Notes under the pieces: generated by a model
What the model was told of the DNA's origin: nothing
What the model saw: the letters and a program-made list of their open reading frames with translations, nothing else
Database searches by the model: none
Shown: positions 1-51,637 of the stretch, piece by piece
Layout: each line of letters opens with the position of its first letter
Numbering within the stretch: the stretch's first letter is position 1
Made by a program: the position numbers and the translations under genes
Assembly: GCA_015521465.1 (NCBI GenBank)
Contig: WAOD01000062.1
Location: 1 to 60,275, forward strand
Origin: DHVE2 group archaeon
GTDB lineage: Archaea > Thermoplasmatota > Thermoplasmata > Thermoplasmatales > Aciduliprofundaceae
Length of the DNA: 60,275 nucleotides
Reading direction: 5' to 3'

Positions 1-2298
1 GTTTTATACCTTACCAATGTTAGTAGATCATTCATATCTGGGAATTACGGTTTCATAGGTCTGGTTAACTGCAGCAACATAACCATCACTGCAAAAAAAA
101 TCTACAATGAATACGAAGGCTTTCTCTTGGCTTACAGCAAAGATATAAGTATTGGTCAAATTACAATAAATGAATCTTACTATGGAATATTTGGCTACAA
201 CTCTACGGAAATAAATGTTTATAATATGAGTGTTGAATCGGTTAGCAGGGGGGTCATGATTCATAATTCCACCAATGGTTATTTTGAACATGGAAATGTT
301 ACAAATTCCTCTTATGGGTTCTTTGTAGAAGGTTCCAACTGGATTAAAATAGCGAATTTCACATTCACTTACACGCAAAACACGGTAATTTACATTAAAG
401 ACTCTGGAAATGCAAGCATTACCAACAACACCTTGCTGAACATAACCAAAAACGGAGTTATTGTTTTAGATTCTGAAAACATGTCTTTGCAAGGAAATCG
501 ATTTACAGGTAAAAACATATATGTATATTACCAGCACTACCACATAATAGATTTCGCATCTTCCAAGAACATCACAGTGGAATACAACAGAATCGAGCAC
601 ATACCCAACGTATATTCTGAACCCTTCTATATTTACAAAGGAAGAGACATCATAGTATCCAGAAACACAATAAAAGATGTGTTAACAAAAGGTATCTCTA
701 CTAAATATTTAAGTGCCAACGTGACAATAAGAGATAACCTGCTCATGGGCATGAACACTGGGATTGATGTAGAATCATCATCTAATGTTAAAATCATAAA
801 TAACACAATATACAACACAAGTAGAGGTTTGTACATGGGTGGTGGTAAATACAATCTGGTTAGATATAACAACATATCCCACTCATCGAGCTATGGGATA
901 TATCTTCACAGCGTAAGTAACTCTCTCATAGAATTAAATAATGTATCTTTCACCCATGGTAAATATTCTCCTAGTACTGGTATTTATTTTGAAGGAGCAG
1001 GCGAAGTTGAGAAATATTATACGGTAATAAGAGCAAACACGCTTTGGAATAACACTGGTCCTGGAATTTATGTATATCATTGTGGCGGGATTAAGATTTA
1101 TGACAATTTCTTCTATTATAATAGAGGCTCTAATGATACATATAATCATACTCACATACAGGCTAAAGTTGATGAGGCAAGATACACCACATGGTATTCT
1201 GAGGGCGGATATGGAAATTACTGGTATGACTGGGCAAATAATAATGATAGTAATGACCAAAATAACGATGGTATCGTTGACTGGAAGTATTGGTTAGAGA
1301 AGGATGTTCTTGGGTATGTATCTGATCCCTATCCTTTAAAATATCCAATAATTTTGCGAGATCCGTCCGCTCCATTGAATCTAACCATATCAAACTACAG
1401 CGTTAACAACACCTATGTGAACCTTAGTTGGAAACCACCCCTTTCAGATGGTGGCGTTCCCATTAAAAAATACTATATCTATCGTTATTATACTAATGGT
1501 GTAGGAGGATGGTACTCTACTACGCGTATTGCAACGGTGGATGCAAATCAATTGTGGTACAATGATACAAGTGTATCCAAGGGTTACAAGTACTTCTATT
1601 ATGTAACAGCAGTGGCTGCCACGGAGGGGCCACCAAGCGAGACGGTAGATGTTATAATTGCAAACCCGCCTGATCCACCAAAGAACGTTAAGGCTGTGGC
1701 AGGTGATGGAGAGGTAACTCTCACGTGGAGCATATCCTCTTGGGGCGGAGGCGATGTGTATCCCAAAGGAATAAAGATTTACAGAAATGGAGTATTCTTA
1801 AAGAAAGTGGATTCATATACCACAAAATACGTTGATAAAGATGTTGTAAATGGAGAAAATTACACATACTATCTCACACAGTTGAATCAGTTCTTTGAGA
1901 GCAGACCAAGCGAAAATGTAACCGTTAGACCTATTGGAAAGCCCGAGAGTCCAACTAATCTTAATGCAACAGTTGGTAATGGGTATGTTAATTTGACATG
2001 GCAACCTCCAGTGAGTGATGGTGGGGACTCCCTTAAAGGTTACAACATATACAAAAACGGAGTACTTGTCGTAACAGTATCACCGAATCAAACATACTAC
2101 AATGATACCAATGTAGTTAGTGGGCAAACATACATGTATTATGTAACCGCTATCAACTCCGCCGGGGAGAGTAACCCTAGCAACGAGGTGCAAGCCACAC
2201 TACCTGGAACAATTCCAGAATTATCTGCAGGAATTTGGACAGTGATCTTCACACTAATTTCTATGATTTTATTTGAGAAATATCGTAAATATTCTTAA
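1..2298 (+). CDS. Surface glycoprotein, 5'-truncated by the window edge: parallel beta-helix (PbH1/NosD-like) repeats, three Fn3-like modules, C-terminal membrane anchor
   Basis: Frame 1 has no stop from nt 1 to the TTG at 127 where the ORF track starts, so the gene begins upstream of the window. Periodic beta-helix turns are present (SRNTIKDV, RDNLLMG, INNTIYNT, RYNNISHS). There are three modules of the type 'P..P.NL....G...V.L.W.PP.SDGG..I..Y.IY'. The C-terminus is PEL + hydrophobic helix + KYRKYS. N-x-S/T sequons are very dense. Confidence 0.75.
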   Translation, partial: VLYLTNVSRSFISGNYGFIGLVNCSNITITAKKIYNEYEGFLLAYSKDISIGQITINESYYGIFGYNSTEINVYNMSVESVSRGVMIHNSTNGYFEHGNVTNSSYGFFVEGSNWIKIANFTFTYTQNTVIYIKDSGNASITNNTLLNITKNGVIVLDSENMSLQGNRFTGKNIYVYYQHYHIIDFASSKNITVEYNRIEHIPNVYSEPFYIYKGRDIIVSRNTIKDVLTKGISTKYLSANVTIRDNLLMGMNTGIDVESSSNVKIINNTIYNTSRGLYMGGGKYNLVRYNNISHSSSYGIYLHSVSNSLIELNNVSFTHGKYSPSTGIYFEGAGEVEKYYTVIRANTLWNNTGPGIYVYHCGGIKIYDNFFYYNRGSNDTYNHTHIQAKVDEARYTTWYSEGGYGNYWYDWANNNDSNDQNNDGIVDWKYWLEKDVLGYVSDPYPLKYPIILRDPSAPLNLTISNYSVNNTYVNLSWKPPLSDGGVPIKKYYIYRYYTNGVGGWYSTTRIATVDANQLWYNDTSVSKGYKYFYYVTAVAATEGPPSETVDVIIANPPDPPKNVKAVAGDGEVTLTWSISSWGGGDVYPKGIKIYRNGVFLKKVDSYTTKYVDKDVVNGENYTYYLTQLNQFFESRPSENVTVRPIGKPESPTNLNATVGNGYVNLTWQPPVSDGGDSLKGYNIYKNGVLVVTVSPNQTYYNDTNVVSGQTYMYYVTAINSAGESNPSNEVQATLPGTIPELSAGIWTVIFTLISMILFEKYRKYS

Positions 2299-2362: not shown

Positions 2363-2632
2363 CTAACTGATCTCCGCTTTCTCCAGCAGAAACGCCCACG
2401 AGCCTTCCTCGTCTTCCGGGTCGAAGTCACCGGTGGTTTGCTCGAACGCTTTACGCAGTTGCTTAATGGTGAATCTAATTTTCTTTTTCTTGTGCAGGTA
2501 CCGCACCACGTGCACCAGCGCCATGTATCTGGACCAGTGTGTGTACTCTGCGATATCGTTCACAATTCCAGTCAATGATTTCCCCTGTTTCCACATTTTC
2601 CATATCTTCCTGTCCAGCGATTCAAAGCTCAT
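2363..2632 (-). CDS. Small hypothetical protein of the element (possible HTH, 'GKSLTGIVNDIAEY')
   Basis: 89-aa ORF in the GC-rich block. Its start overlaps the stop of the upstream 62-aa ORF by 4 nt. Confidence 0.45.
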   Translation of the reverse strand: MSFESLDRKIWKMWKQGKSLTGIVNDIAEYTHWSRYMALVHVVRYLHKKKKIRFTIKQLRKAFEQTTGDFDPEDEEGSWAFLLEKAEIS

Positions 2633-2817
2633 GGTTCTCCCTCCCTCTGTGTCAGCCCTATAATCTTACCAAGTCCGTACTTCTTCATTAGCACCGCAAA
2701 TTTGAGGTCCACAACGATTATTTCTCCCTCTTTTGCTGTAAGATCCTCTTTGGGCAATGCTATCCGAAAGTCCCGAGTACATTTCACTCTAGCGCACATT
2801 TGCCTCGTCATCTTCAA
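2629..2817 (-). CDS. Small hypothetical protein of the element (weak SpoVT/AbrB-like 'FRIALPKE' segment)
   Basis: 62-aa ORF. It overlaps the 3' end of the 555-aa gene by 29 nt and the next ORF by 4 nt, in an operon-like arrangement. Confidence 0.35.
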   Translation of the reverse strand: MKMTRQMCARVKCTRDFRIALPKEDLTAKEGEIIVVDLKFAVLMKKYGLGKIIGLTQREGEP

Positions 2818-4456
2818 TCACATCTATCTTCCCAGCAGTTAGCAGTTGCTCAGCCAATTCTATTGGGCACTTCAACACTGAGCCAGCCGTTAGTAGTACA
2901 TCTTTTCCCAACACCTCAGAGTACCAAGAGAACGGCTCTAACACGCAGCAGTTGACTGTATCTTCCTCTTTGCATAGCTCATTGATTAAAATCTCCAGTT
3001 CTATTTCCGTGGGCTCTGGTAGTAAATCAAGCACAGATTCGTAGTCAATTTCCGGATCCTTTACAATATCGGGAATTTCCATTATAGACTCATTTGTTCT
3101 GTATTTCCTCCATCCTTCAACCCATCTCCGCGTATCCGTAAGATAGATGTATCTACCACGCACCTTTGAGTCCCCTATGGTTATCGTTCTCCTTTTCGTG
3201 TGGAATCCGAGCTCTTGCATGAGCCTTCCAATTCTCGCATTGCTCATACCCGTTATATCCGCTAACATGCCCGCGGTAATCGCAACAATCTTTCCCTCGC
3301 CTTCGGTGTCTTCGTAATACGCATAGGTGATATATTTCTTGAATTTCTCTGGCAAATCCTTGCCGTGGATTATTCCCTGCGCAATGTCCACTATTGCATT
3401 GAATATCTGGCCCTCAGCACTGTTTGCTCGTTGCTCGGCAATTTTTTTCTGCCTATCTAAGAGCCATTTAACAAAGGAGTTCTGCATGATGCCGTCCCCG
3501 AAAAGTGGAAGAATGATAGAAAGCGGAGCGGCCAGTTGTTTGAGTCTTGGCTCCACAGGCAGCTGCTGAACCAGCTCGATTTTCTCGTCATCAACTCTTT
3601 TCCAGTTTCTCAAACACCATGCTGCTATCATATCCCTAAGCCTCTCTGTCTCTTCGAAATATGTAGTTGGCAGCACCGGCGGAATGTCCCTACGGTTTGT
3701 CTCGTACGGAGAGATAGACAGAATTCTCCCTTCTGTTGCAGCGTCCCTGAATGGCTCTCGCATGGCAAATATCTTCGGTGAGAACGGGTCAAAAGCCTCG
3801 ATTTTCGATGGGTCATTCCGGTTGCTCATTATAGCCACTTTTCTCCTTTCGAAGCCTGCGTTTACGAATTTCACAAGATCATTTTCTTTATCACCTTTGA
3901 AATCGGCCTCGTCGAGCACTAAAGTTCCCTTTGCAATCTCCTGCACTCTCATAATCGCACTGCGAGTTGCCGTGCCTGCCAACATCAGGGGATAAAAGCA
4001 CAAATCTCCTGTAACCGTGAGCATCCGCGATTTGCCTTTCCCACTGTCTCCTAAGAACCGCAGATACGCAACCGTGTTCGATTTTCTGTAAAACCACGTA
4101 AAAAGTATAAAGAACACTACAAGCTCAAGGTCATTCTCGGGCAGATCCACATATTTTCTCAGGTGCTCCTTTATTCTCGCGAATAATTCTGGCGTTTCTA
4201 TATGCTCCGCGTTAACTATGTTGGTAGTGGGATACTCCAAGGGTAACCGGTGCCCCTTCTTGTCGAGTTTTGGCACTAAGGGCCGGTATTTCTCCCCATC
4301 AACTGTTACTTCCTCGGTCAGTTTTATCTCTTCGCTTTCTGGGTCATAGTACGCGAAATAGTAACCCTGTGCTCCTTTGACCGCCAGGTATATCCTGTCC
4401 TCTGTGTCAATGAACGTCACTTCCTTGTAATCCTTTTTCTTCTGCTTTTTGGCCAT
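2789..4456 (-). CDS. P-loop NTPase, putative replication helicase/initiator of the element, with a C-terminal winged-helix-like segment
   Basis: Walker A 'GDSGKGKS'. Walker B 'TLVLDEADF'. HTH-like 'ITGMSNARIGRLMQELG'. 555 aa, GC-rich, with no housekeeping motif recognised. Confidence 0.6.
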   Translation of the reverse strand: MAKKQKKKDYKEVTFIDTEDRIYLAVKGAQGYYFAYYDPESEEIKLTEEVTVDGEKYRPLVPKLDKKGHRLPLEYPTTNIVNAEHIETPELFARIKEHLRKYVDLPENDLELVVFFILFTWFYRKSNTVAYLRFLGDSGKGKSRMLTVTGDLCFYPLMLAGTATRSAIMRVQEIAKGTLVLDEADFKGDKENDLVKFVNAGFERRKVAIMSNRNDPSKIEAFDPFSPKIFAMREPFRDAATEGRILSISPYETNRRDIPPVLPTTYFEETERLRDMIAAWCLRNWKRVDDEKIELVQQLPVEPRLKQLAAPLSIILPLFGDGIMQNSFVKWLLDRQKKIAEQRANSAEGQIFNAIVDIAQGIIHGKDLPEKFKKYITYAYYEDTEGEGKIVAITAGMLADITGMSNARIGRLMQELGFHTKRRTITIGDSKVRGRYIYLTDTRRWVEGWRKYRTNESIMEIPDIVKDPEIDYESVLDLLPEPTEIELEILINELCKEEDTVNCCVLEPFSWYSEVLGKDVLLTAGSVLKCPIELAEQLLTAGKIDVIEDDEANVR

Positions 4457-4459
4457 GTT

Positions 4460-4969
4460 TCACCACCTCCTGCTGGCTACCCACTCCCTTGCCTTCATTA
4501 TTGTCAGTTCCCGGTATCTATTGCCCGCCGTGGGCCATTTTCCTATTCCGCAGCGCATCATCACTTCGTTGATCTCTGCGTCCGTGAAACCCTGGTACAC
4601 GAGTTCTCGCACACAAGCAAGTTCGGCCTCACTGCGGCTCGGGTATCCGTACCGTGCCCACCTTCCTTCACAAAGGTCCCGGAACCACTTGTCCCTGTGC
4701 ATAAGTTCCTCGATGGTTGGATGGTCGTGAGATTGCTGTAAAATGCTTCCTTTTATCCCATTCGTGCTCTCTCCCGTGTCATTTAAAATGCTCTCAAGAA
4801 GTGTCGCATTCCGTTCTCTGGCGTTTTCTATGTCCCCCATGTCAAATTTGTCGTACCAGTAAGTAAGCAGTGGGTAGTGTGGAATCTTTAGATTTGTAAA
4901 GCCGATGGGCTGAAACAGTCTATTGATGTTATAGGTATGGTAGAACTCCACGCCAGAGTCATTCCGCAC
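4460..4969 (-). CDS. Hypothetical element protein (169 aa), first gene of the minus-strand module
   Basis: GTG start at 4969. Its stop lies 3 nt before the start of the 555-aa gene. The segment 'SRSEAELACVRELVYQGFTDAEI' resembles helical domains of plasmid primase/Rep proteins, but this is a weak call by eye. Confidence 0.45.
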   Translation of the reverse strand: MRNDSGVEFYHTYNINRLFQPIGFTNLKIPHYPLLTYWYDKFDMGDIENARERNATLLESILNDTGESTNGIKGSILQQSHDHPTIEELMHRDKWFRDLCEGRWARYGYPSRSEAELACVRELVYQGFTDAEINEVMMRCGIGKWPTAGNRYRELTIMKAREWVASRRW

Positions 4970-4992
4970 CTGCGGAATCAGAAAAATCAGGT

Positions 4993-5012
4993 AATTACGC
5001 AGCTGCGTAATT
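4993..5012. promoter_or_regulatory. Perfect 20-bp palindrome AATTACGCAGCTGCGTAATT next to a TATA-like box, 24 nt upstream of the module start codon
   Basis: The sequence equals its own reverse complement when read directly. On the minus strand, 'TTGATAAATT' (plus-strand 5009-5018) overlaps its upstream arm. Confidence 0.5.
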
Positions 5013-5040
5013 TATCAAACAGATGCATGTCAAAGGGTCT

Positions 5041-6408
5041 TCACATGCCAAGCAGCCATTTCCACAGAGGAACAAAAACTATCTTTTTGCCTTTTATTTC
5101 CTCAACAGCATCGTAGGAAGAGTTAATAACCAAAAGATTCTCGCAGTTCAGCGCATCACTTGCTTTGATTAGCGCAGTAACCTCTCTTTTTTTGGTATCG
5201 TAGTCCGACACATCGTAGGAAACTTGGATTAGCTGCTCTATTTTCAAATCATTTCTAATGACAAAATCAACTTCTTTTCCTCTCTGATCTTTCCAGTAGA
5301 ACACATCAAAATTATCTTTCGAACCTCTTCTGAGAAGCTCCACAGCGACCATATTCTCGTAAAGTCTGCCCATATCCTTTGAGAATTTAGTGGATATGCT
5401 GGATATGAACCCGTTGTCTATGATGTAAACCTTCCGAGGATACTGCATCTGGTCCTTGATTTTGTAAGAGAATATGGGGATACTATGTATAAAATAAGAG
5501 CTTTCGATGTAGCCCAGATAGTTCAATACAGTGGTCTTTCCGATGTGGTATCCCATGCTCTTCAGGGTGTTGTACAGCTTACTTATAGAGTAATTCGTGG
5601 AGTTCAATAGTAACTTTAAAAGAGCTTTGATTCCTTCCTCGTTACCAACATTGAATCTCTCGATTATATCCCTGCTCAGAACCGTTCTGAAGTAATCCTG
5701 CAGGATCTCAAACTTTTTGCTCTCATCCGCTAAAACCACTTCCGGCATACCTCCATAGGTAAGGTACTCATTGAGAGCCCTTAAAATCACGGTCCGGGTG
5801 CTCTCTGAATACTCCGCATCCTTATAATTAACATTAATGTTCTTAAATCTCAAAAACTCGGTAAAAGAAAGGGGATGTACCTTAATTTCGAGGCTTCTAC
5901 CCCGCAATTCCGTGGGTAGCTCTCTGCTGGAAACCTTGGACGATGAGCCAGTGATGAATATATTGACGCTTTCGTTATCGTATATTCTCCTCAACCACTT
6001 GCTCCAGTGGGGCATGTTCTGAATCTCGTCCAGCAAAAGATATCTCGGCTCCGAAAATGTCTCTTTTATTGCAGGAACCAAATTAGTCAAGAATTCCGTG
6101 CTCTCCGGTATTCTCTCATCATCAAAGTTGATGTAAATCACTTCCTCCCGGCTGTACTCCTTAAGCAACTTTTTTATTAGAGAATAGAGAATGTACGTTT
6201 TTCCAACTCTTCTAAATCCCGTAATTGCCACTATCTTGCGAGGAGTCATTTTCAGGTATCCCTCTAGCTCCACCTCTCTTGGGATTATTTCGGGAATCTT
6301 TTTGTCCTTCCACGAATACAGGATTGTCTTTATTGTATTATCCATGGTACAATAATGATATGAAACTGTACTACTTAACCTTTTTGCAGTATGATTTCGG
6401 ATTTCCAT
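5041..6408 (-). CDS. AAA+ ATPase of the COG1373 type (AAA_14 + DUF4143 architecture)
   Basis: Walker A 'GFRRVGKT'. Walker B 'YLLLDEIQ'. The C-terminal part is paralogous to the neighbouring ORF ('VHPLSFTEFLRF', 'EVDFVI'). Confidence 0.8.
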   Translation of the reverse strand: MEIRNHTAKRLSSTVSYHYCTMDNTIKTILYSWKDKKIPEIIPREVELEGYLKMTPRKIVAITGFRRVGKTYILYSLIKKLLKEYSREEVIYINFDDERIPESTEFLTNLVPAIKETFSEPRYLLLDEIQNMPHWSKWLRRIYDNESVNIFITGSSSKVSSRELPTELRGRSLEIKVHPLSFTEFLRFKNINVNYKDAEYSESTRTVILRALNEYLTYGGMPEVVLADESKKFEILQDYFRTVLSRDIIERFNVGNEEGIKALLKLLLNSTNYSISKLYNTLKSMGYHIGKTTVLNYLGYIESSYFIHSIPIFSYKIKDQMQYPRKVYIIDNGFISSISTKFSKDMGRLYENMVAVELLRRGSKDNFDVFYWKDQRGKEVDFVIRNDLKIEQLIQVSYDVSDYDTKKREVTALIKASDALNCENLLVINSSYDAVEEIKGKKIVFVPLWKWLLGM

Positions 6409-6418
6409 TGAATTGCAA

Positions 6419-7168
6419 TTATTGCAACAGAAACCTCCACAGCGGGATCAATGTCACTCCGTTCATGTCTCCCTCTTTTGTTCTTGTTATCACCGCTTTA
6501 GAATAACCTCTCAAATTTCTCAGATTCTTCAAGTCCTCCTCGGCGATGTTGTCTTTGTATTTTGACTCCCATGCCATATTACCACGAACAAAATCCACTT
6601 CGAGCCCTGATGTGCGATGATACCGCACCTCTCCTTGCTGCTTTAGCTTTAAATACACCAGATTCTCCACAATTGCCCCCAAATTTATTTTGTCCACTAT
6701 TACCGTGAAAAACCCAGTATCCTCGAGGTATATTTTTCTTGGGGATACCTTTCTCTCAGATAGTTTTCCTTCTCTCTCCACGTCGTATATCAAATTAGCC
6801 TCCTTGAAGAAATACAGTATATCGCTCACATCATCTTTGGATATTCCAACGCATCTGGCAATTTTTCTCAGGCTCGCAGGTGTGCCCACACTCTGCGCCA
6901 AGCATGCCAAAGTATCCGCGAGATTTTCAACGTTTCTTATCCCATGGGTCCCTGCAATATCTCTGTATATGATGGTGCCTAGAAGGTATTGGAGATAATT
7001 CAAATCCTTTGTTTTTACATATTCTGGTAACCCACCCATTGTGGCGTACTCTTCCGCTAATTTGGGATAAAGATGTGCATCCGCAGGCGTGATTTCGTTG
7101 TTTGTGAATTGAAGATATTCTCTAAAGTTTAGAGGATAGACATGAATTACCCTTTGCTTCCCTGTCAA
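6419..7168 (-). pseudogene. 5'-truncated COG1373 paralog lacking the whole AAA domain
   Basis: The ORF begins at 'VIHVYPLNFREYLQF', which aligns to residue ~175 of the 455-aa neighbour ('EIKVHPLSFTEFLRF'). The frame is closed ~20 nt upstream. It has only a TTG start. Confidence 0.6.
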
Positions 7169-7276
7169 AGATGGTATATAAATGTGTCTCTAAATAATTG
7201 GACACTATTGCTTTTTACTGTCTATTCACAATATGACAACATAAAATCCTGTTTCTCTGACGGTCATGGCCCCAAA

Positions 7277-8113
7277 TTATGGTTCAAACACCTTTACTAT
7301 CTCACCTACCACCTGTGGGTACCAGTAATCCGCCTGCTTCACCTTCGCGAGGTAGTGCATGGAACCGATGCTCACTGGACTGCGACCCTGTATGAAATCT
7401 GCCACACTCTCCGGCACGTTGTGCATAATAAGGAAGTTGTAGTTCCACTTGCGCAAGTACTTGGGTGAGAGTGTACGCCTTGCGAAATAATTGGTTACGC
7501 CCCTGTCAGTTATCTCATATCTCTTCATAACTTCAAAGATATTCAAAGGCATGTATGCATAGTAAGAACGCTTGGTACCCCTCGAAGAGAATATTGGTAA
7601 ACGAACAAAGTTATCCGCGATGTGAGCTCTTGATCTATCAAAATTATTTATCAGGTGCACTCCCTCAATAACTCTTAATCCAGACACCGCAAGAAGCAAA
7701 AACACGGTGCGGTATCTTTCGTCATTAATCTCGTTGTATGCTTTTATCACCTCTTCATTGGAAGGGATGTAATTATCCACGTTAGAGCGAACGACTTTCA
7801 GTATCCTTCGATATTTTGCCAAGGTTCCTGGGTCTATGAGATCAAATTCCTCATAATAGTTCAGTAGATTTCGGAGTGCAAGAACTATATACTTCTTGCC
7901 GGTTGCTTTTTCTCTTATTTCCCATAGTTCATGGAGGTCACTAATGATTTTAGTTCCAACAAATCTATCAAGAGTGCTTATAATGGCCTTTACGTATTTT
8001 TCGGATGTGACTCTCTTGCTTAGCCATACAGTAAAATCCGCCTTCACAGACGCATAATCCAGAGAAAACCGGTACGGTTGAGGGGCCAGTCCCGTAGGGG
8101 TTCCTGGGTTCAA
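7277..8113 (-). CDS. int: Tyrosine recombinase, SSV-type integrase C-terminal fragment, Int(C)
   Basis: Catalytic-type residues: 'LAVSGLRVIEG' (Arg), 'HNVPESVADFIQGR' (His-x-x-Arg region), 'GSMHYL' (Tyr). The first ~120 codons contain no ATG. The frame is open back to 8146, and codons 1-17 are antisense to the tRNA fragment. Confidence 0.75.
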   Translation of the reverse strand: MNPGTPTGLAPQPYRFSLDYASVKADFTVWLSKRVTSEKYVKAIISTLDRFVGTKIISDLHELWEIREKATGKKYIVLALRNLLNYYEEFDLIDPGTLAKYRRILKVVRSNVDNYIPSNEEVIKAYNEINDERYRTVFLLLAVSGLRVIEGVHLINNFDRSRAHIADNFVRLPIFSSRGTKRSYYAYMPLNIFEVMKRYEITDRGVTNYFARRTLSPKYLRKWNYNFLIMHNVPESVADFIQGRSPVSIGSMHYLAKVKQADYWYPQVVGEIVKVFEP

Positions 8114-8128
8114 ATCCCAGCCCCCGCA
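8078..8128 (+). mobile_element. att site: 3' half of a tRNA-Leu(GAG)-like gene, running from the anticodon loop to the discriminator
   Basis: TTGAGGG loop, GCCAG, long variable arm TCCCGTAGGGGTTC, T-arm CTGGG-TTCAAAT-CCCAG, acceptor CCCCCGC, then A, followed by a T5 run. There is no complementary 5' acceptor, D-arm or 5' anticodon-stem strand upstream. The acceptor strand is identical to that of the intact tRNA-Leu at 51451. Confidence 0.7.
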
Positions 8129-8197
8129 CTTTTTAGCTGTTGTTGTTTATAATATGAGAAATCGCAACTCTAAAATACGCTGCTCCAATCCCTCACC

Positions 8198-9844
8198 GTG
8201 AAGCTCGTAGTTGAGGATTTTCCAGAGACTTTATCCGGAACTTTGGAAGGATATATTGCTGCATTAAACAAGGCAAGGAGGAGGATACACGAGGAGCTTT
8301 TGGTTATAAATAGTGTGCCTATAAAACCGATGTCGCATCAGATTGAGGTGGCAAAGAAGGTAATATACGACATGGACTGCAGGGCCATACTTGGGGACGA
8401 AGTGGGGCTTGGAAAAACCATCGAAGCGGGATTGATTTTGAAAGAAAAAATACTTAGGGATGAGGTTAGCAGTGCGCTCATTCTTGCTCCAGCATCTCTT
8501 GTACAGCAGTGGAAAACTGAACTTGAAGAAAAGTTTAACATGAATTTCACGATAGCCACTTCTCCCGAGGAATTTATGGAGCGCTTTGTGGTAGCTTCCA
8601 TTCATCTGGCCAAAAGAGAAAGGTACAGGAACAGCGTTGTTGGCAGGTCATGGGATATGGTGGTGGTTGATGAAGCGCATCATGTTAGAAATCCTAAAAC
8701 TCAGAATTACAGGCTTTTGCGCGAACTAAACTCTAAATTCATGCTTCTATTGACGGCCACGCCTGTTAGCAATTCTCTGAAGGAAATATACTATCTTGGA
8801 GACCTTCTTCGGCCGGGAATATTTGGAACTTACCGAGAGTTTGAATCGTTGTACTTCTCTGATAAGAAGGGGCAAAGCATAAAGAATCAGGAAGAGCTCA
8901 GAAGAAAGCTATCGGAGATTATGGTAAGAAATAGGAGAAGAGACGTTTTTGTGGATTTCACCGAGAGGGTTGTAAAGACTCATGTTGCCCGGATGGAAGG
9001 AAAAGAGCGTGATCTTTATGATTTAATACTGGATTTTTTGCGAAGCGAGGAGAACAAACTGCGGGTTATTTCTTATGCTAAAGCGGCCACATCTTCTCCA
9101 AGAACAGTTGCGAAGATGGCATGGAAAGCCCTGAAACGAGAAGAAAATCTCTATGGGCGAGAGGCTTTGCTTAAAATATACAGGGCAGCCATGGACTCTC
9201 CATTTACCAAATTAGAGCTTCTCAAGAAGGTAGCCGAGAGCGTTGAAGGCGGGGTGATTTTTACCACTTATCTTGAGACCATGCACGAGATTGATGACTT
9301 TTTGCAGGATTATGGGTATCATGTTCTGACTTATCATGGGGGCATGAGCAGGGAAGAAAAAAGCAGGACTATTGAAGAATTCAAAAAGAAAAGAGGCTTT
9401 TTAATAGCCACCGATTCTGGCGGTGAGGGTCTTAACCTCCAATTTGAAAACGTTATGATTAATTTTGACCTCCCGTGGAATCCCATGAGGGTTGAGCAGA
9501 GGATTGGTCGGATACACAGGATTGGCCAGGTGCGCGACGTTTATGTTGTGAATTTAGCTTACGAGGATACTATAGAAGAGCACATACTTCGGATTTTAGA
9601 CAAGAAGATAAATCTGTTCAGGAGTGTGGTTGGCGAGGTAGATGCCATACTTGGCTCCCTTGAGAGAAATTTTGAAAGTATAATAGCTGATATTATAATG
9701 AAATCAAGGGACAGGGCGGAGATGGCTACCCGGCTTGATATGCTAGGTGATGACCTTGAAAAGATAAGGAGCAGGTACGAAAGGAGCATGGAGATAAACG
9801 ATTCCATATTTTCTCAGTTCAACCTTGGTATTGGAGGTGTTTAA
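8198..9844 (+). CDS. SNF2/SWI2-family helicase, minimal core only
   Basis: Motif I 'GDEVGLGKT'. Motif II 'VVVDEAHHVRN'. Motif III 'LLLTATP'. 'GGEGLNLQ'. Motif VI 'WNPMRVEQRIGRIHRIGQ'. Confidence 0.9.
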   Translation: MKLVVEDFPETLSGTLEGYIAALNKARRRIHEELLVINSVPIKPMSHQIEVAKKVIYDMDCRAILGDEVGLGKTIEAGLILKEKILRDEVSSALILAPASLVQQWKTELEEKFNMNFTIATSPEEFMERFVVASIHLAKRERYRNSVVGRSWDMVVVDEAHHVRNPKTQNYRLLRELNSKFMLLLTATPVSNSLKEIYYLGDLLRPGIFGTYREFESLYFSDKKGQSIKNQEELRRKLSEIMVRNRRRDVFVDFTERVVKTHVARMEGKERDLYDLILDFLRSEENKLRVISYAKAATSSPRTVAKMAWKALKREENLYGREALLKIYRAAMDSPFTKLELLKKVAESVEGGVIFTTYLETMHEIDDFLQDYGYHVLTYHGGMSREEKSRTIEEFKKKRGFLIATDSGGEGLNLQFENVMINFDLPWNPMRVEQRIGRIHRIGQVRDVYVVNLAYEDTIEEHILRILDKKINLFRSVVGEVDAILGSLERNFESIIADIIMKSRDRAEMATRLDMLGDDLEKIRSRYERSMEINDSIFSQFNLGIGGV

Positions 9845-11420
9845 CTTGGACTCCTTTTCTTCTGTTAAAATCAAGAGAAAAAAGCCAGATTTTAGAAATG
9901 CCACTCTCGTGGATGATGTCTTCGAGCGGGACCGTGTTTTTCACTCTTTTGCCATACAGGTGAGATACATTGGCAAGGAATCCAAAACGGAATTGAGAGA
10001 GTACTTATGGGGTCCAGATGGTAAAATGAACCCTGAGATTTTGAAAGGAGCCGAGTTTGAAAGTTCAAAGGAAAAATCTGAGTTCAAGATACCTGCTGAA
10101 ATAATAGAAGAAATCAGGGAAAGGGGAGAGAAAGAAGAGGCAAAATTTCACAGGGAGCTCGAAAAAGAGAGACGAGATGTTATATTGCATCTTAAAAGGG
10201 TTCTTGAAGAGAACATGCGGGAGGAGAAATACGAAGAGGTTGAGAGGATAAAGGCTGAGATTGAGAGGCGGGAAAATGCTGAGTTACCGGAGCTTGTTGT
10301 TAAAATAGAGCCTGTTGCCCTTTTAGAGATACACGCGCCTGTAGAGATTCACCATTCTCGGCTCAGAAATGAATTTGCAGAGAAAGAGCTTACCTGGAAG
10401 TTTGACACACTTACCGGTGAGCATGATTTAAGGTGTGAGGGTTGTGGAAAAAGTGCAATGGAGTTCTATCTCACAGTTGATGGCATATCCTGTGAGAGTT
10501 GCCTGAAGGAGTGCAAGGAATGTGGAAAACCTATGATTCATGCAAAAGAATGCAAAGTTTGCCATGCTCCGTTATGTGATGAACACGCTCACTACTGCTC
10601 CACTTGTCACGAGCCCATTTGCTCAGAGCATGCTACCAAATGCAAATTTTGCAGTAATGAAATGTGTCCTGACCACGTGAACAGGTGCTCAGTTTGCAAT
10701 GCGCCATTGTGCGAAGAGCATACTTATCATTGCTCCGTTTGCGGTTCAACTATAGGCCCTATGCATGTTAGAGTTTGCGATGTTTGCGGTTCTAATGTAT
10801 GCCCTGAACATATACACAAATGTGCCATATGCGGCAAAAACGTTTGCGAAAACTGTGCAGTGGAGCTTGATGGAAAATGGTACTGCAAGGAGCATTTAGA
10901 AAAGAGCTATGGAGGTAAGTGGGTAATTCCAGAAGTACGGTGCAAGACATGCGGTGTTGCTTTAGCGAGTGATGAGATAAATCGCTGCTCTGTATGCAAC
11001 GCGCCTTTATGCGAAGAGCATACTAATCATTGTTCCGTTTGCGATGCACCCCTATGCGATGAGCATACTCATCATTGCACGATATGTAATGTGCCCCTGT
11101 GCGAGCAGCATGTATTTATCTCCGAGTTAAGTGGTAGAGAGTACTGTGAAGAGCATTCTTCATTCTGTAAAATTTGTGGTAGAATCGTAGGGAAAGATGA
11201 GCTCAAAAATGGAGTATGCCATGCCTGCTCAAACATGGTGGAGGTTAGCAGGAGAGAGATACCACGTGAAATAATGTTCAAGTTTCCGTATTCAAAGCAT
11301 GGAAAAAGATGGTTTGTGTCCAGGGGTAAAAATGTTGCGTACATTACAGAGGTAAAAGGCGTGATTCTTGCATATCGAATAGTCAATGGAGAAATTGTTG
11401 AGCATCGTGGGAAAAGGTGA
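9825..11420 (+). CDS. Cysteine/histidine-rich multi-zinc-finger protein with an N-terminal coiled coil
   Basis: It overlaps the SNF2 stop. A GGAGGT Shine-Dalgarno at 9833-9838 suggests the true start may be the TTG at 9846. There are ~15 tandem C-x2-C-x3-[LIV]-C-x2-H-x3 units. No ATG occurs near the 5' end. Confidence 0.8.
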   Translation: MVLEVFNLDSFSSVKIKRKKPDFRNATLVDDVFERDRVFHSFAIQVRYIGKESKTELREYLWGPDGKMNPEILKGAEFESSKEKSEFKIPAEIIEEIRERGEKEEAKFHRELEKERRDVILHLKRVLEENMREEKYEEVERIKAEIERRENAELPELVVKIEPVALLEIHAPVEIHHSRLRNEFAEKELTWKFDTLTGEHDLRCEGCGKSAMEFYLTVDGISCESCLKECKECGKPMIHAKECKVCHAPLCDEHAHYCSTCHEPICSEHATKCKFCSNEMCPDHVNRCSVCNAPLCEEHTYHCSVCGSTIGPMHVRVCDVCGSNVCPEHIHKCAICGKNVCENCAVELDGKWYCKEHLEKSYGGKWVIPEVRCKTCGVALASDEINRCSVCNAPLCEEHTNHCSVCDAPLCDEHTHHCTICNVPLCEQHVFISELSGREYCEEHSSFCKICGRIVGKDELKNGVCHACSNMVEVSRREIPREIMFKFPYSKHGKRWFVSRGKNVAYITEVKGVILAYRIVNGEIVEHRGKR

Positions 11421-31092: not shown

Positions 31093-33462
31093 TTATTTAA
31101 CCCTTGCAGCATTAATGACCTCGTCGTTGTTTTCCAGATTTATTAGTTTTACACCGTGTGCGTTTCTTCCCATTACGCGTATGTTTTTCACAGGAAATCT
31201 TATGCTCATGCCGTTTTTTGTAAGCACTATTACTTCCGAGTCATCATCCACCATGATGCTCTTTACCACGCTAGCATTACGCGTTTCAATGTTCTTCACC
31301 CCGAATCCCCCGCGTTTTATTTTGCGGTACTCGTCAATTATTGTTCTTTTTCCATGGCCGTCAGTGAGAATCGCAAACACATATTTTCCCTCTGAAGATA
31401 ATCCTGCGGAAACAACTTCGTCTCCATCTCTCAACCTTATGCCGTGAACTCCTCTTGCAGTTCTTCCCATTATTCTCACATCGTCCTCATCAAATCTTAT
31501 TGCTTGTCCGTATTTGGTGAAAATCATGACCTCGCTATCTCCGTTGGTTATCATCACATCTACAATTTCGTCATCTTCGTCGAAGTTTATTGCTCTCATT
31601 CCGTTGCTTCTTATGTTAGAAAATTCAGAGAGATAGGTTCTTTTAACTATACCTTTTTTGGTCACAAAGAAGAGTATGCCTTGGAAATCTTTAACCGAAA
31701 TCATTCTTATTACCGGGCTGTCTATTTTTGGTAATATATTCACTATGGCTCTCCCCTTTGACCTTCTGCTTCCCTCAGGTATTTCGTATGCCTTTGCGGA
31801 GAACACTTTTCCAGATGCTGTGAAAAATAACAGGTAATCATGCGTGTCTGCTTTGACCACGTCTCTTATTAAATCATCATCTCCGTAGGATATCATCAAT
31901 CCCTTGCCACCGCGATGCTGCACCTTGTATTCATCTAAGCTTATTCTCTTAACGTAGCCCCTTTCGGATATGATAACAACGTTTTCTCCTTGGGGTATAA
32001 GCTCTTCCAGTGTTCTTCTATCCACCTCGCCGTAAACTATTTCCGTGCGCCTTTTGTCTCCGTACTTGTTTTTAACGTCAATAAGCTCATCTTTTATTAC
32101 ATCGTACCTCATCTTTTCATCGCTTAGTAATTTTTCCAGGTATTCTATTTCTTCCTCCAATTTTTTAGCTTCCTCTTTCAAGGCGTTGATTTCCATTGAG
32201 GTGAGTTTCTGCAGGCGCATTTCAAGTATGGCCTTTGCCTGTATGTCTGAGAATCCCATGTTTACCAGGTTTGCGTGTGCTTCTTTCACGTCCTTTGAAG
32301 CTTTAATTGTTGCTATAACCTCGTCAATTATGCTAAGCGCCCTTATGAGCCCGTCCAGTATGTGTTTCCTCTCTTTATCTTTTTCAAGCCTGAATTTGGA
32401 TTTTCTGATTAACACGGACATCCTATGATTTATGTACTCCCTCATTAATTCTTTTAAATTCAGCACTTTTGGTACTCCATCCACCAGCACCAGATTTATT
32501 ATTCCGTAAGTTACCTCAAGGTCAGTGTGCTCCATTAATTGATTCACGACAACCTCTGGATTAAAGTCTCTTTTTACTTTTATAACTATTCTTATTCCGT
32601 CTCTATCGCTTTCGTCCTTCAGGTCGGATATGCCATTGAGCTTTCCATCTCTAACCAATGCTGCAATTTTCTTGAGTATGTTGCTCTTGTTCAACCCGTA
32701 CGGAATTTCGTTTATTATTATGCTCTTGTCTTTTATTTCGTACTTTGCAGATATTTTTATTTTTCCCCTTCCGGTGGTATATGCTTCCACCAATCCGCCA
32801 TAGCCGGTAACCTTCCCGCCAGTGGGGAAATCTGGGCCCTTTACAAATTTTAGCAAGTCGTTAATTGCCGCATCTGGATTATCTATGAGATACACCATAG
32901 CATCTACAATCTCGCTTAGATTGTGGGGGGGCATGTTCGTGGCCATGCCAACTGCTATTCCGCTGGAGCCGTTAATTAAGAGGTTGGGGACCCTTGAGGG
33001 TAGAACCAAGGGCTCTTTAAGCGTGCCGTCAAAATTCGGCATGAAATCCACGGTTTCCATGTCTATGTCTTGAAGCATCTCCTCTGCAATTTTTGATAAC
33101 CTTGCCTCCGTGTACCTCATTGCAGCAGGGGCATCCCCATCAATAGAGCCAAAATTACCTTGGCCATCGACCAGAAGATATCTCATTGAGAAGTCCTGTG
33201 CCATTCTGGCAAGGGTGTTGTAAATTGCCTGATCTCCGTGTGGATGGTACTTACCCATAACCTCTCCTACAATTCTCGCGCTTTTCTTGTATGGTTTATT
33301 GTGATGCAAACCCAGTTGATACATTCCATACAAAATCCTGCGATGCACGGGCTTTAACCCGTCTCTAACATCGGGTATTGCTCTTGATACAATAACGCTC
33401 ATGGCGTAGTCTAAATATGAATTTTTCATTTCCTCGTCAATTGGACGCTCTTTAATATCCAT
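31093..33462 (-). CDS. gyrA: DNA gyrase subunit A
   Basis: '[30 protein letters not shown]', 'GKYHPHGD', active-site '[10 protein letters not shown]'. C-terminal beta-pinwheel repeats. Confidence 0.95.
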
Positions 33463-33505
33463 ATCCTTGGAGAAGGAAGGATGTTATATATCCCTTTTCC
33501 TGTAA

Positions 33506-36500: not shown

Positions 36501-36589
36501 ACTTCTATTATTCGAAAATCGTGGTCAAGTATGGCTATACCAACGAAAGCCACGTTGCAGGCGTCGCAGAGCATATTTTTATTTACCAT
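33506..36589 (-). CDS. Cytoplasmic multi-PAS/GAF sensor histidine kinase
   Basis: H-box 'IVSHDLKNPLAVIEGY'. N-box 'NLLDNAYKYG'. 'DDGIGI'. 'GSGLGLAIVKKIIELHGG'. Several PAS-like 'DITERK/DITSRV' boundaries. No TM segment. Confidence 0.9.
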   Translation of the reverse strand: MVNKNMLCDACNVAFVGIAILDHDFRIIEVNSEVLKKGKIEEKEVVGTNFLKYLPCKDKDKMKELLKRVRDGGIEESMITQIKAKDGWIWVTALARPFKNTILVNLIDITEALQTEIALEEEIRIEKTLEEAIQDAVMVINDAGKITSWNSSAERIFGFKKNEILGNTVWKIIPEQFVDEYKKVFFEDIETDKWDRKSKLITILAKNKDGQEMPVELSIGKVKIGKKWNFIVVARDITSRVEREKELEREKDELTFLYKFLNKISSTLDLESIFETAYLELKKILPKMDAFLVALIDDKKEKINVEFVVGEGKKYEKHSIPFNDKDTLAGWVATHEKELYVKKVNNGNLPADIRKVGTMMNSWVGIPLKYHGKTFGVLSVQSKEDNAFTERDLRILRIVSDNFAMVIANAEMYAELKVREELYSSIVNTNIVGMATTDRDMVFKFVNEDFADMLGYKPEEMIGKHLKNFTTEKGFKDIEEGTKRRLASISDSYESEFVKKDGTIIQVLIYASPIKSIKGEVVGTVGIILDITERKKMEERIKNEREKYKILFENVATGIAIIQDKRIVYANREMARMLGYELVEIIGERVDKFIHPHYVKMILVFYDSRLRDLPAPNNYIAQLITKRGNAIWCEVKVSKIDWEGKIAVMGSVTDITHIKETEDTIIALERIAREIKNAKNVDEVFKIVSNGINSILHFARVRIETRENHIESTRNENAKESEENNNNLEIIKLAWEKTKSYYDEKYIENTGKIESTYAIPIIARGKVYAVMTVSRIAEKGIATEEKMMIDMLASHMGATIDSILYQKELESSKNLQELMLHIVSHDLKNPLAVIEGYTELLKDECKEEYLDEIKNALDNSVKIIERARLFSKLDMKKIHQEIERMNIREIVEKAYGLIRDKYPKSKIIVKGETEIDAYPIIEEVFVNLLDNAYKYGAKVVMVTINSENGNVEIKVADDGIGISEGKKEIIFEAFERISKRGSGLGLAIVKKIIELHGGTIEVADNKPRGSIFIINLPNSIKDAKKQN

Positions 36590-51450: not shown

Positions 51451-51535
51451 GCGGGGGTTCCCGAGCATGGCCAAAGGGGCCGGACTTAAGATCCGGTTCC
51501 GAAGGGATTCGTGGGTTCAAATCCCACCCCCCGCA
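51451..51535 (+). tRNA. tRNA-Leu (anticodon TAA), long variable arm
   Basis: Acceptor GCGGGGG/CCCCCGC. Anticodon stem CCGGA/TCCGG with loop CTTAAGA. T-arm GTGGG-TTCAAAT-CCCAC. 85 nt. Confidence 0.9.
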
Positions 51536-51637
51536 CTTTTACTTGAGTTTTACAATTATTAGCAAATTTACTATTTTCTGCTATTTTATTATTAATTTAC
51601 TATCAAGATGTCTTATACTTTGGATGCAAAATCAAAG

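Follow-up and report, generated by a model that had tools for sequence, protein, structure and literature searches.

The window analysed here, a 60,275-nt stretch of DNA from a DHVE2 (Aciduliprofundum-like) archaeon, carries two abutting genes on the forward strand, the first encoding an SNF2 ATPase and the second a zinc-rich partner protein (Table 1). Stop and start codons are separated by 1 nt, and a Shine-Dalgarno-like motif lies within the SNF2 coding sequence. The first-pass annotation had given the same SNF2 coordinates, with the stop inside the next open reading frame and the GGAGGT 7 nt before a TTG, and our reading agrees in each respect. When listed from position 9825, the partner frame overlaps the SNF2 stop; the alignment of homologues and a comparison of the junctions favour the start at 9846 over this one, and the relative L008 (92–95% identical) has an ATG exactly at the position of the TTG. 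At every DHVE2 locus a purine-rich GGnGGTG is found 6–8 nt 5' of the partner start, and the stop-to-start gap ranges from −8 to +1 nt. Upstream of the SNF2 gene, TTTATAATA is a candidate archaeal promoter for the two-gene unit; the model behind a sigma-70 promoter scan of the region is inapplicable to archaea.

Table 1. Features of the SNF2–partner locus and its upstream flank (positions in the window)
Feature	Position	Strand	Remarks
SSV-type (archaeal phage) integrase	7277..8113	-	PF16795 E 6e-46; PHROG integrase E 3e-45
tRNA 3' fragment, ~45 nt, att-like remnant	about 8084..8129	+	69 nt upstream of SNF2 start
TTTATAATA, TATA-box-like element	8147..8155	+	43–51 nt upstream of SNF2 start; read from sequence
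SNF2 ATPase gene, 548 aa	8198..9844	+	stop TAA at 9842–9844
GGAGGT, Shine-Dalgarno-like	9833..9838	+	within last SNF2 codons; 7-nt spacer to partner TTG
Partner gene, 524 aa	9846..11420	+	TTG start at 9846
YqhG-superfamily core, residues 1–194	9846..10427	+	profile match; first ~100-aa YqhG subdomain absent
Zinc array, residues 197–461 (265 aa)	10434..11228	+	44 Cys, 27 CxxC/CxxH knuckles
Direct repeats, 45-nt register	10551..11111	+	copies at 10551, 10686, 10731, 10986, 11031
Basic C-terminal domain, residues 466–524	11241..11417	+	net charge +8, pI 10.5

The SNF2 gene lies directly upstream of the partner gene in 10 of the 10 DHVE2 loci that have upstream DNA. The same order is found in L015, L017, L022, L023, L025 and L026, and 33 of 80 SNF2-anchored metagenome loci have a downstream ORF for a YqhG-like partner (see below) with 0 to 33 zinc knuckles. 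In the metagenome loci no long SNF2 at ≤32% identity has such a partner, nor does any of 80 viral SNF2 loci. The gene-neighbourhood survey for which the first-pass annotation had called thus reveals an adjacency that is kept in DHVE2, in distant bacterial and archaeal relatives and in metagenomes. Because of this conserved pairing, it is sound to think of a two-component SNF2 machine whose partner is supplied in trans, and SNF2 and partner are a real, tightly and translationally coupled two-gene unit, as had been suspected. It is very improbable that the genes are mere neighbours with independent functions, coupled only because the genomes are compact. Short intergenic distances are indeed frequent in the window, e.g. 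in the rpoE'/spt4 overlap, but in Archaea and Bacteria alike the pair stays together in the same order amid flanking genes that all differ, and the junction retains both its narrow spacing and its SD-like motif.

Pfam matches in the SNF2 protein are confined to the motor, which bears out the earlier view of a two-lobe enzyme without accessory domains. SNF2-rel_dom (PF00176) covers residues 58–280 (E 3e-37; 129 bits vs a cutoff of 24.9) and Helicase_C (PF00271) residues 338–443 (E 2e-24), the generic helicase models ResIII and DEAD overlap the motor region, and Pfam gave no match for chromo, HARP, RING or nuclease domains. Walker A (GLGKT), DEAH, TATP and QRIGRIHRIGQ are intact in the translation; with both lobes and these motifs the protein is an SNF2 family ATPase. 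Its best PDB match is the archaeal dsDNA translocase core 1z63 of Sulfolobus solfataricus SSO1653, also called SsoRad54 (E 6.5e-41, residues 64–488), with RapA as the second-best solved-structure family (E 4e-35). SSO1653 itself is longer and extended at its N-terminus. E. coli RapA (HepA), known for RNA polymerase recycling, belongs to the same prokaryotic SNF2 branch, but it has 968 aa and carries N-terminal RNAP-binding and C-terminal domains in cis, where the DHVE2 protein has a separate partner instead. Assignment to RapA proper was rejected, as the NCBIfam model (NF003426) reached 188 bits vs a cutoff of 576 with a match limited to the motor.

The closest relatives outside DHVE2 are SNF2s of 550–600 aa from Bacillales and haloarchaea. 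The YqhH orthologue of Alkalihalophilus pseudofirmus OF4 (P0121) shares 44% identity over 506 aa with the DHVE2 protein and has the same minimal size of ~550 aa; the gene overlapping it downstream is a bona fide YqhG (PF11079, E 6e-126), and the pair is located in a conserved chromosomal gcvT/comG neighbourhood. In Bacillales as in DHVE2 the SNF2 gene comes first, the two genes overlap or abut, and the partner cores are homologous at the profile level. By its size, the lack of accessory domains, the similarity to YqhH and the YqhG-like gene on its 3' side, the DHVE2 motor falls into the YqhH/HepA-like clade of minimal SNF2s. Natronomonas moolapensis (L023) and the metagenomic loci L025 and L026 likewise encode SNF2s, 38–41% identical to that of the window, followed by an abutting partner with the same core.

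The partner has 12 close homologues, all from DHVE2, and as a whole it matched nothing in Pfam, NCBIfam, PADLOC or PHROGs. The first-pass annotation had rightly described its 265-aa zinc array, but "charged coiled coil" does not do justice to the N-terminal ~190 aa: in the AF2 model (mean pLDDT 89), residues 4–74 form beta strands, 84–144 a helical hairpin and 151–187 a meander of beta strands. Residues 13–194 align over 182 columns with a 46-sequence YqhG-like profile built in the present analysis (hhalign 96.5%, E 7.7e-10; HMM E 4e-6), which places the partner in a YqhG-like superfamily, with an aligned region that includes the coiled coil and with the first subdomain absent. An earlier 10-sequence profile gave 27% only in hhalign, the Pfam YqhG family (PF11079, gathering score 25 bits) does not include the window partner, which it left unmatched even at E ≤ 1, and searching 1.84 billion representative proteins with an N-terminal profile built from DHVE2 alone recovered only the cluster it came from. 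What connects the partner to YqhG is therefore the iterated profile, which contains the coiled-coil segment. Direct Pfam YqhG matches were obtained for P0022 and for 7 of 36 other partners; P0022, encoded downstream of a 577-aa SNF2, combines its YqhG match (E 4e-9) with a following zinc array.

All 44 cysteines of the partner fall within the array, for which about 13 Zn sites are predicted. The repeating unit is mostly C-x2-C-x4-C-x2-H-x3 with a period of 15 aa, a pattern of 15 residues also appears in the DSSP assignment of the model, and every knuckle Cys and His is invariant among DHVE2 orthologues. Growth of the array has been modular: copies in the 45-nt register are up to 79% identical, and the orthologue P0005 has exactly one 15-aa unit fewer. 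The array has a net charge of −12. The basic C-terminal domain, in which two short helices (474–485) precede four beta strands (489–522), is conserved in distant family members and is a candidate nucleic-acid contact. L025 and L026 share the type of 15-aa knuckle array, but the L025 partner is without the C-terminal domain, and the 387-aa Natronomonas partner ends after a single zinc ribbon, equivalent to the first one in the DHVE2 array. No domain library matched the knuckle array, and its only structural resemblance is a weak one to tandem LIM domains (Foldseek E at least 0.035). Inclusion among LIM domains was rejected (PDB phmmer E 0.085–0.9; Foldseek E 0.035–0.6; TM ≤ 0.37). The analogy with the RING domain of Rad5/HLTF, drawn in the first-pass annotation, finds no support, as no RING model matches SNF2 or partner; the pair is no Rad5/Rad16/HLTF-type RING-bearing SNF2, either in cis or in trans.

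Both subunits are homologous to the YqhH/YqhG pair, with which they share the coupling of the genes, and judged by sequence comparison the locus is an archaeal version of this widespread bacterial pair. Whereas Bacillales YqhG has 265 aa and no zinc array, the DHVE2 partner is without the first ~100-aa subdomain and has about 330 additional aa (~13 zinc sites and the basic C-terminal domain). We conclude that it is probably a YqhG-superfamily adaptor from which the first subdomain has disappeared and to which a zinc rod of 15-aa units and a basic C-terminal domain have been added. The earlier remark that no system of this composition has been characterised must be qualified, as the pair is part of a named family, albeit one that is functionally uncharacterised.

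It is reasonable to propose, with moderate confidence, that the locus encodes a two-subunit YqhH/YqhG-type SNF2 machine in which a bare motor and a zinc-rod adaptor perform a chromosomal job. The first subunit, related to RapA/HepA and the SSO1653 core, would be a dsDNA translocase motor, catalytically intact by its motifs, that itself lacks a targeting domain. The second would be made by coupled translation from the same mRNA, with the ribosome-binding site inside the SNF2 gene, and its rod of ~13 zinc sites would have arisen by duplication of the 15-aa knuckle unit. The two proteins may associate, the partner targeting or regulating the motor within their complex. Contact with nucleic acid would be made by the basic C-terminal domain and not by the acidic array, which could serve as a rigid, heat-stable spacer or a protein-docking rod. 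As has been proposed for RapA/HepA, the machine might clear or remodel stalled protein–DNA complexes in transcription or repair, rather than act against viruses. A chromosomal role is in line with the DHVE2 neighbours of the pair, which include gyrA, LSm/purF, pelota, proteasome/FttA and rpoE' genes. B. subtilis YqhH has been listed as a poorly characterised HepA/RapA homologue among the RNAP-interacting translocases (PMC7385302), and a yqhH knockout of B. thuringiensis is UV-sensitive (PMC10054049).

By analogy with eukaryotic systems, the motor might instead slide or evict histones or Alba-type proteins, with the zinc rod docking on chromatin proteins. Among PDB structures, the ISWI, CHD1L, DDM1 and INO80 motors align well with the SNF2 core (E 1e-33 to 1e-27), an acidic, LIM-like array would fit protein docking, and there is a precedent in HELLS/DDM1, an SNF2 ATPase that depends on, and is activated by, the separately encoded zinc-finger protein CDCA7 (PMC10538959). 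The latter resemblance is an analogy only, as we found no relationship in sequence or fold between the zinc module of CDCA7 and the DHVE2 array. We regard such an archaeal chromatin or nucleoid remodeler as improbable: histone-free bacteria, Bacillales and others, commonly carry the SNF2/YqhG-like module, no histone-recognition domain was found, and the likeness to eukaryotic remodelers is limited to the generic motor.

The left flank of the pair is formed by an SSV-type integrase gene, the 5' end of which lies in the tRNA fragment. With this PF16795 gene overlapping a tRNA-derived att sequence, the flank qualifies as a case of tRNA-targeted integration, and the integrase bounds a variable integrated element on the right, the region left of the integrase differing from that of L008. 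A left-end att repeat of the element was not found. What the first-pass annotation had taken for a tRNA/att site is no whole tRNA: ARAGORN predicted none there, and the ~45-nt fragment resembles the 3' part of the tRNA-Leu(taa) at 51451–51536, matching its 3' end over 24 nt with 1 mismatch (0 expected by chance). The supposed link of the pair to this integration site does not extend beyond the near-identical L008. Integrase and tRNA fragment are incidental, since the pair has other locations, amid housekeeping genes, in other DHVE2 genomes. Further neighbours are rpoE'/spt4, DUF359 and S24e in the window, and gyrA, pelota, a Na/H exchanger, CBS/purF and proteasome/FttA at the other DHVE2 loci.

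The window pair nevertheless adjoins a variable element with a PDC-S01-like ATPase, and one may ask whether it defends against mobile elements, the motor scanning DNA and the zinc-rod partner acting as a sensor for foreign DNA or a viral protein; interference would then come from a nuclease encoded elsewhere, or from the motor stripping proteins off invading DNA. The NCBIfam and PADLOC models closest to the SNF2 are indeed DrmD, BrxHI/HII, DpdE, HmaA and ZorD. In bacterial relatives (P0013, P0015) three-gene operons of SNF2, partner and Mrr_cat occur; ZorD likewise combines SNF2 with an Mrr-like nuclease. In P0016 Mrr_cat is fused to the same type of array inside an integrase/SMODS (MGE) island, this array type is also present on HerA/DUF87 ATPases that match defence HerA models, and the Natronomonas pair adjoins a DUF499/HmaC-like ATPase gene and an integrase. 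Moreover, the pair is non-syntenic between DHVE2 genomes and evolves faster (SNF2 69%, partner 61% identity) than its housekeeping neighbours (79–92%). The non-synteny and fast evolution, the Mrr sublineage, the Mrr–array fusion and the Natronomonas neighbours were weighed against the chromosomal reading.

The SNF2, however, scores far under every equivalog cutoff, and further genes of DISARM, BREX, Zorya or Dpd are absent from the vicinity of the pair. As candidates we rejected DISARM DrmD (251 and 220 bits vs 950 for DrmD_b and 610; no drmA/B/C or methylase neighbours), Zorya ZorD (102 vs 1500 bits), Dpd DpdE (228 vs 500 bits) and BREX BrxH; for the latter three the PADLOC matches cover motor segments only, and no companion genes were found. 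The SNF2s of these systems are multidomain proteins of 870–1290 aa, whereas the DHVE2 motor scores at 10–25% of the cutoffs and has no companion genes in the window. PADLOC did not match the partner, YqhG or the Zn relatives; the Mrr gene is limited to one bacterial sublineage among all loci compared; the pair neighbours housekeeping genes in DHVE2, and its Bacillales orthologue sits in the gcvT/comG neighbourhood; and viral SNF2 loci are devoid of the partner. A defence role is not supported at this locus, and we consider it unlikely.

More speculatively, YqhH/YqhG-type pairs could represent an ancient, prokaryote-wide two-subunit SNF2 machine with an undescribed, evolvable zinc rod of 0 to >30 knuckles, the DHVE2 pair acting as a sensor-motor rather than in housekeeping; we advance this only tentatively. 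If it were true, the rod would be an accessory module of general use to DNA translocases and conflict systems, with target specificity set by its length or surface. An array that serves HerA and Mrr proteins, too, as a rigid spacer or specificity element would add a new building block to the machinery of DNA transactions and conflict. Little is understood of prokaryotic SNF2 ATPases other than RapA and those of the defence systems. Here, both in Bacteria and in Archaea, a minimal SNF2 motor is accompanied by a dedicated partner, and an orphan archaeal zinc-rich protein is now linked to YqhG. The pair thus offers a testable two-protein system for how a bare SNF2 motor is targeted, for which thermostable DHVE2 proteins and the genetically tractable Bacillus and haloarchaeal versions are possible sources. 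The rod, together with the preceding helical hairpin and beta meander, is also found on HerA/DUF87 translocases, Mrr nucleases, a VWA protein and an E2-like enzyme.

The SNF2 gene and its partner lie where the first-pass annotation placed them, and their junction agrees with both the ORF table and the raw sequence. The longest mechanical ORF downstream opens at 9825 and overlaps the SNF2 stop. As thirteen aligned partner homologues start around an MDSF motif and L008, a near-identical DHVE2 relative (~92-95% identical), has an ATG at the position of the TTG in the window, the partner was taken to begin at this codon. Across the DHVE2 loci, the partner start lies at -8 to +1 nt from the SNF2 stop and is preceded, at 6-8 nt, by a GGnGGTG motif. 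The C-terminal SNF2 peptide (…F-x-L-G-[IV]-[GV]-G-G-V-stop) is conserved as well. Since the bases that encode it also make up the SD-like motif of the partner, constraints on the protein and on the translation signal are inseparable at 9819-9844. A scan for bacterial sigma-70 promoters and terminators, which has no bearing on an archaeon, gave sites no commoner than in shuffled sequence. In Pfam, the SNF2 protein shows SNF2-rel_dom (residues 58-280) and Helicase_C (338-443), overlapped by generic helicase models. The two motor lobes are its whole content, as had been proposed, and all ATPase motifs are intact.

Features of the gene pair, the neighbouring element remnant and the partner protein
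Feature	Position	Strand	Source or remark
SNF2 ORF, 548 aa	8198-9844		stop TAA 9842-9844; ORF table and raw sequence
GGAGGT	9833-9838		raw sequence
Partner start codon TTG	9846		raw sequence
Partner gene, 524 aa	9846-11420		homologue alignment and L008 start codon
SSV-type integrase	7277-8113	minus	
Truncated DUF4143 gene	6419-7168		
Intact AAA_14/DUF4143 ATPase	5041-6408		PADLOC PDC-S01, E 1e-110
Primase-like ORF	4460-4969		
555-aa ORF of unknown type	2789-4456		
89-aa ORF	within element remnant 2363-8129		
Beta strands	partner residues 4-74		AlphaFold2 model
Long helical hairpin	partner residues 84-144		AlphaFold2 model
Beta meander	partner residues 151-187		AlphaFold2 model
Periodic knuckle array	partner, after beta meander		AlphaFold2 model
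C-terminal domain	partner short helices 474-485, then four beta strands 489-522		AlphaFold2 model

All 12 close homologues of the partner (51-92% identity) come from DHVE2, and every related genome contig carries a DHVE2-group or Thermoplasmata archaeal title. An SNF2 gene directly precedes the partner in 10/10 DHVE2 loci with upstream DNA, which bears out the adjacency that the first-pass annotation had put forward for checking. The flanking genes vary among the genomes (gyrA and LSm/purF; pelota; Na/H exchanger; CBS/purF; PLD/DUF3198 and topA; proteasome/FttA). In the DHVE2 locus L001 the pair adjoins gyrA, whereas the gyrA of the window (31093-33462) adjoins a PAS/GAF histidine kinase. At the corresponding synteny break (window 31093-36589 versus L001 3898-9584) L001 harbours the pair and the window a 1027-aa GAF/PAS histidine kinase. 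Between these two loci, identity is 69% for SNF2 and 61% for the partner, versus 79-92% for housekeeping neighbours. Since the pairing is kept while the flanking genes differ, the two-gene cassette is, on comparative sequence grounds, the conserved unit, and the integrase/tRNA and rpoE' contexts are both incidental. Downstream of the pair lie rpoE', spt4, a DUF359 gene, S24e and tRNA-Arg; the rpoE' adjacency was rejected as a functional clue because only a 95%-identical relative has it.

A tRNA/att site and a mobile-element relic had been described next to the pair. The relic is real, but the tRNA is only a 3' fragment of ~45 nt, located 69 nt before the SNF2 start and overlapping the beginning of the SSV-type integrase gene; ARAGORN and Rfam show nothing beyond this fragment upstream of SNF2. 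In sequence it is similar to the tRNA-Leu(taa) 3' end at 51.5 kb. The stretch 2363-8129 is the remnant of a small integrated element, and the GC content climbs to 0.47 at 3-5 kb. The window is collinear with L008 (92% DNA identity) from 7166 rightwards through the pair, whereas the left side differs; element content differs too, the intact AAA_14/DUF4143 ATPase gene being absent from L008. A variable integrated element thus abuts the pair, which belongs to the conserved chromosomal side. As the pair is located elsewhere in other DHVE2 genomes, nothing about function should be read into its position beside an integration site. A search for the left att site of the element gave no convincing direct repeat. 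An exact 15-nt direct repeat, TGTTTATAATATGAG, occurs at 216-230, within the ORF of a beta-helix/fn3 surface protein, and 7.9 kb away at 8144-8158, where it overlaps the TATA-like box ahead of SNF2. Either chance or an old att-like duplication may account for it.

All 44 cysteines of the partner fall within residues 197-461. Its 27 CxxC/CxxH knuckles are mostly arranged in 15-aa units (C-x2-C-x4-C-x2-H-x3), which implies ~13 zinc sites. The array repeats in a 45-nt register at the DNA level, and in the alignment exactly one 15-aa unit is missing from the array of the DHVE2 orthologue P0005. Read from these sequences, the array therefore grew in a modular fashion by unit duplication. A confident AlphaFold2 model (mean pLDDT 89), based on an alignment of 17 sequences, replaces the simple coiled coil once assumed for the N-terminal ~190 aa by strands, a hairpin and a meander. 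Because residues 4-17 form ordered strands in the full model and are disordered in the N-terminal-only model, they probably pack against the C-terminal part. With a net charge of -12 the array is acidic; the final 59 residues, at net +8 and pI 10.5, are strongly basic.

The partner has no match in Pfam, NCBIfam, PADLOC or PHROGs. In a PDB sequence search nothing but LIM or ferredoxin-like proteins came up, none of them significantly (E >= 0.08), and Foldseek against the PDB gave none at E <= 1e-3 for the full model or the N-terminal model (pLDDT 89 and 83, respectively). The best weak structural matches of the array were tandem LIM domains; RapA at rank 23 (E 1.1) was dismissed as noise. Domain and structure searches revealed no RING signal, and with weak LIM matches as the best ones the suggested likeness to Rad5/Rad16/HLTF, with a zinc module supplied in trans, is therefore architectural at most. 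HELLS-CDCA7, an SNF2 protein with a separate zinc-finger activator (PMC10538959), is a closer analogy. A DHVE2-only N-terminal profile run against 1.84 billion representatives recovered its own cluster and two coiled-coil/low-complexity matches only.

Beyond DHVE2, the closest SNF2 relatives (38-44% identical, 550-600 aa) belong to haloarchaea and Bacillales. The SNF2 of Alkalihalophilus pseudofirmus OF4 is 44% identical to that of the window over 506 aa; its gene adjoins gcvT and the comG operon, and the next gene, which overlaps it, encodes a bona fide YqhG (PF11079, E 6e-126). This is the YqhH/YqhG locus; YqhH of B. subtilis is referred to as HepA/RapA-like and is poorly characterised (PMC7385302). 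For the two closest non-DHVE2 SNF2s examined, an unannotated protein with the DHVE2-partner core and knuckle units is encoded 0-2 nt past the stop. The Natronomonas partner consists of the core and one zinc ribbon, which in the alignment pairs with the first of the DHVE2 ribbons. Distant homologues share the whole partner architecture at 22-28% identity; those in bacteria are encoded after minimal SNF2 genes, and one of the distant homologues, P0022, has a direct Pfam YqhG match ahead of its zinc array.

A metagenome scan anchored on SNF2 returned 80 loci, to which we applied a partner HMM that draws solely on N-terminal, non-zinc segments of family members. A YqhG-like ORF lies downstream in 33/80, in every case next to an SNF2 of at least 34% identity; the long SNF2s in this set (<=32% identity) are never followed by one. 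Direct Pfam YqhG matches were obtained for 7 of 36 YqhG-like partners, and the knuckle counts of the metagenomic ones range from 0 to 33. When the DHVE2 N-terminal alignment was compared with the enlarged YqhG-like profile, hhalign reported 96.5% probability (E 7.7e-10, 182 columns) over a region that is partly coiled coil. An earlier comparison with a 10-sequence set had reached only 27%, and in BLASTP a segment of 20 aa aligned with the N-terminus of P0022 (E 0.006); it took the addition of SNF2-anchored partners to the profile to make the link convincing. The alignment of the DHVE2 partners with the YqhG core starts in the middle of the latter, so its first subdomain (~100 aa) is missing from them. 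The pair is a further variant within the YqhH/YqhG family, and the earlier remark that no characterised system has this composition needs amending: the family is named, though itself uncharacterised. No literature on the SNF2/partner pair or on archaeal zinc-array partners was found, and the zinc-knuckle rod and its YqhG link appear undescribed in the libraries and literature searched.

Judged by sequence, an intact SNF2 motor without targeting domains is thus accompanied by a co-encoded, translationally coupled partner of the YqhG superfamily. The idea of a two-component machine was right in that such a pair is conserved; the complex itself we infer. SNF2 and partner would form a heteromer in which the partner may target or regulate the motor, its basic C-terminal domain could contact nucleic acid, and the acidic zinc rod might act as a rigid spacer or protein-docking element. 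Candidate substrates include stalled RNAP, a repair intermediate or foreign DNA. We consider it reasonably probable that the pair, this structure included, serves chromosomal DNA-protein remodelling with a dedicated adaptor, and prefer this to a role as a defence system, which seems unlikely. The best defence-library models of the motor are DrmD, BrxH, DpdE and ZorD, but it scores a small fraction of every equivalog cutoff and companion genes are absent. SNF2-partner-Mrr operons would fit defence, yet the Mrr gene is confined to a single bacterial lineage (that of P0013/P0015), and the nuclease was therefore rejected as a general third component. Fusions of the array to Mrr within an integrase/SMODS island and to HerA/DUF87 ATPases, the DUF499/HmaC-like gene adjoining the Natronomonas pair, and the shifting position and quick evolution of the pair in DHVE2 also point towards defence. 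Against this, partner sequences have no PADLOC match, the pair has chromosomal, housekeeping surroundings in DHVE2 and Bacillales, and a YqhG-like partner occurs at 0/80 viral SNF2 loci. A search of viral contigs gave no relative of the partner.

Several relatives merit description. The bacterial three-gene operons (L005-L007, L015) encode an SNF2 (~600 aa), a YqhG-like zinc-array protein (660 aa) with an extra N-terminal Cys cluster (CCDLCPF...CCDFC), and an Mrr_cat protein (337-344 aa). In Natronomonas moolapensis (L023, 1687-9435) the pair has as its neighbours a divergent gene for a DUF499/HmaC-like ATPase of 1068 aa and one for a tyrosine integrase, a setting that is defence-island-like, unlike the DHVE2 contexts. 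On a 1.29-Mb Methanomassiliicoccales contig (L016, 8001-9635), P0016 is an Mrr_cat nuclease fused to the zinc-knuckle array; its island also includes genes for a tyrosine integrase and a SMODS nucleotidyltransferase, and a Rep-like gene. P0025-P0031 (~990-1006 aa; metagenomic and Methanomethylicia) are HerA/DUF87 ATPases with a C-terminal array of the same type (21-26 knuckles), which suggests that the zinc-rod module may also serve a second class of DNA translocase. In a 10-sequence search, the coiled-coil and beta segment ahead of their array showed weak similarity to the latter half of the YqhG-like core (E 1e-5 to 1e-6). In P0023 (555 aa) the array follows a ubiquitin-conjugating (E2, UQ_con) domain, with a membrane helix at the C-terminus, and P0021 (1046 aa) is a YqhG-like protein with an array, an inserted VWA domain and 99 Cys.
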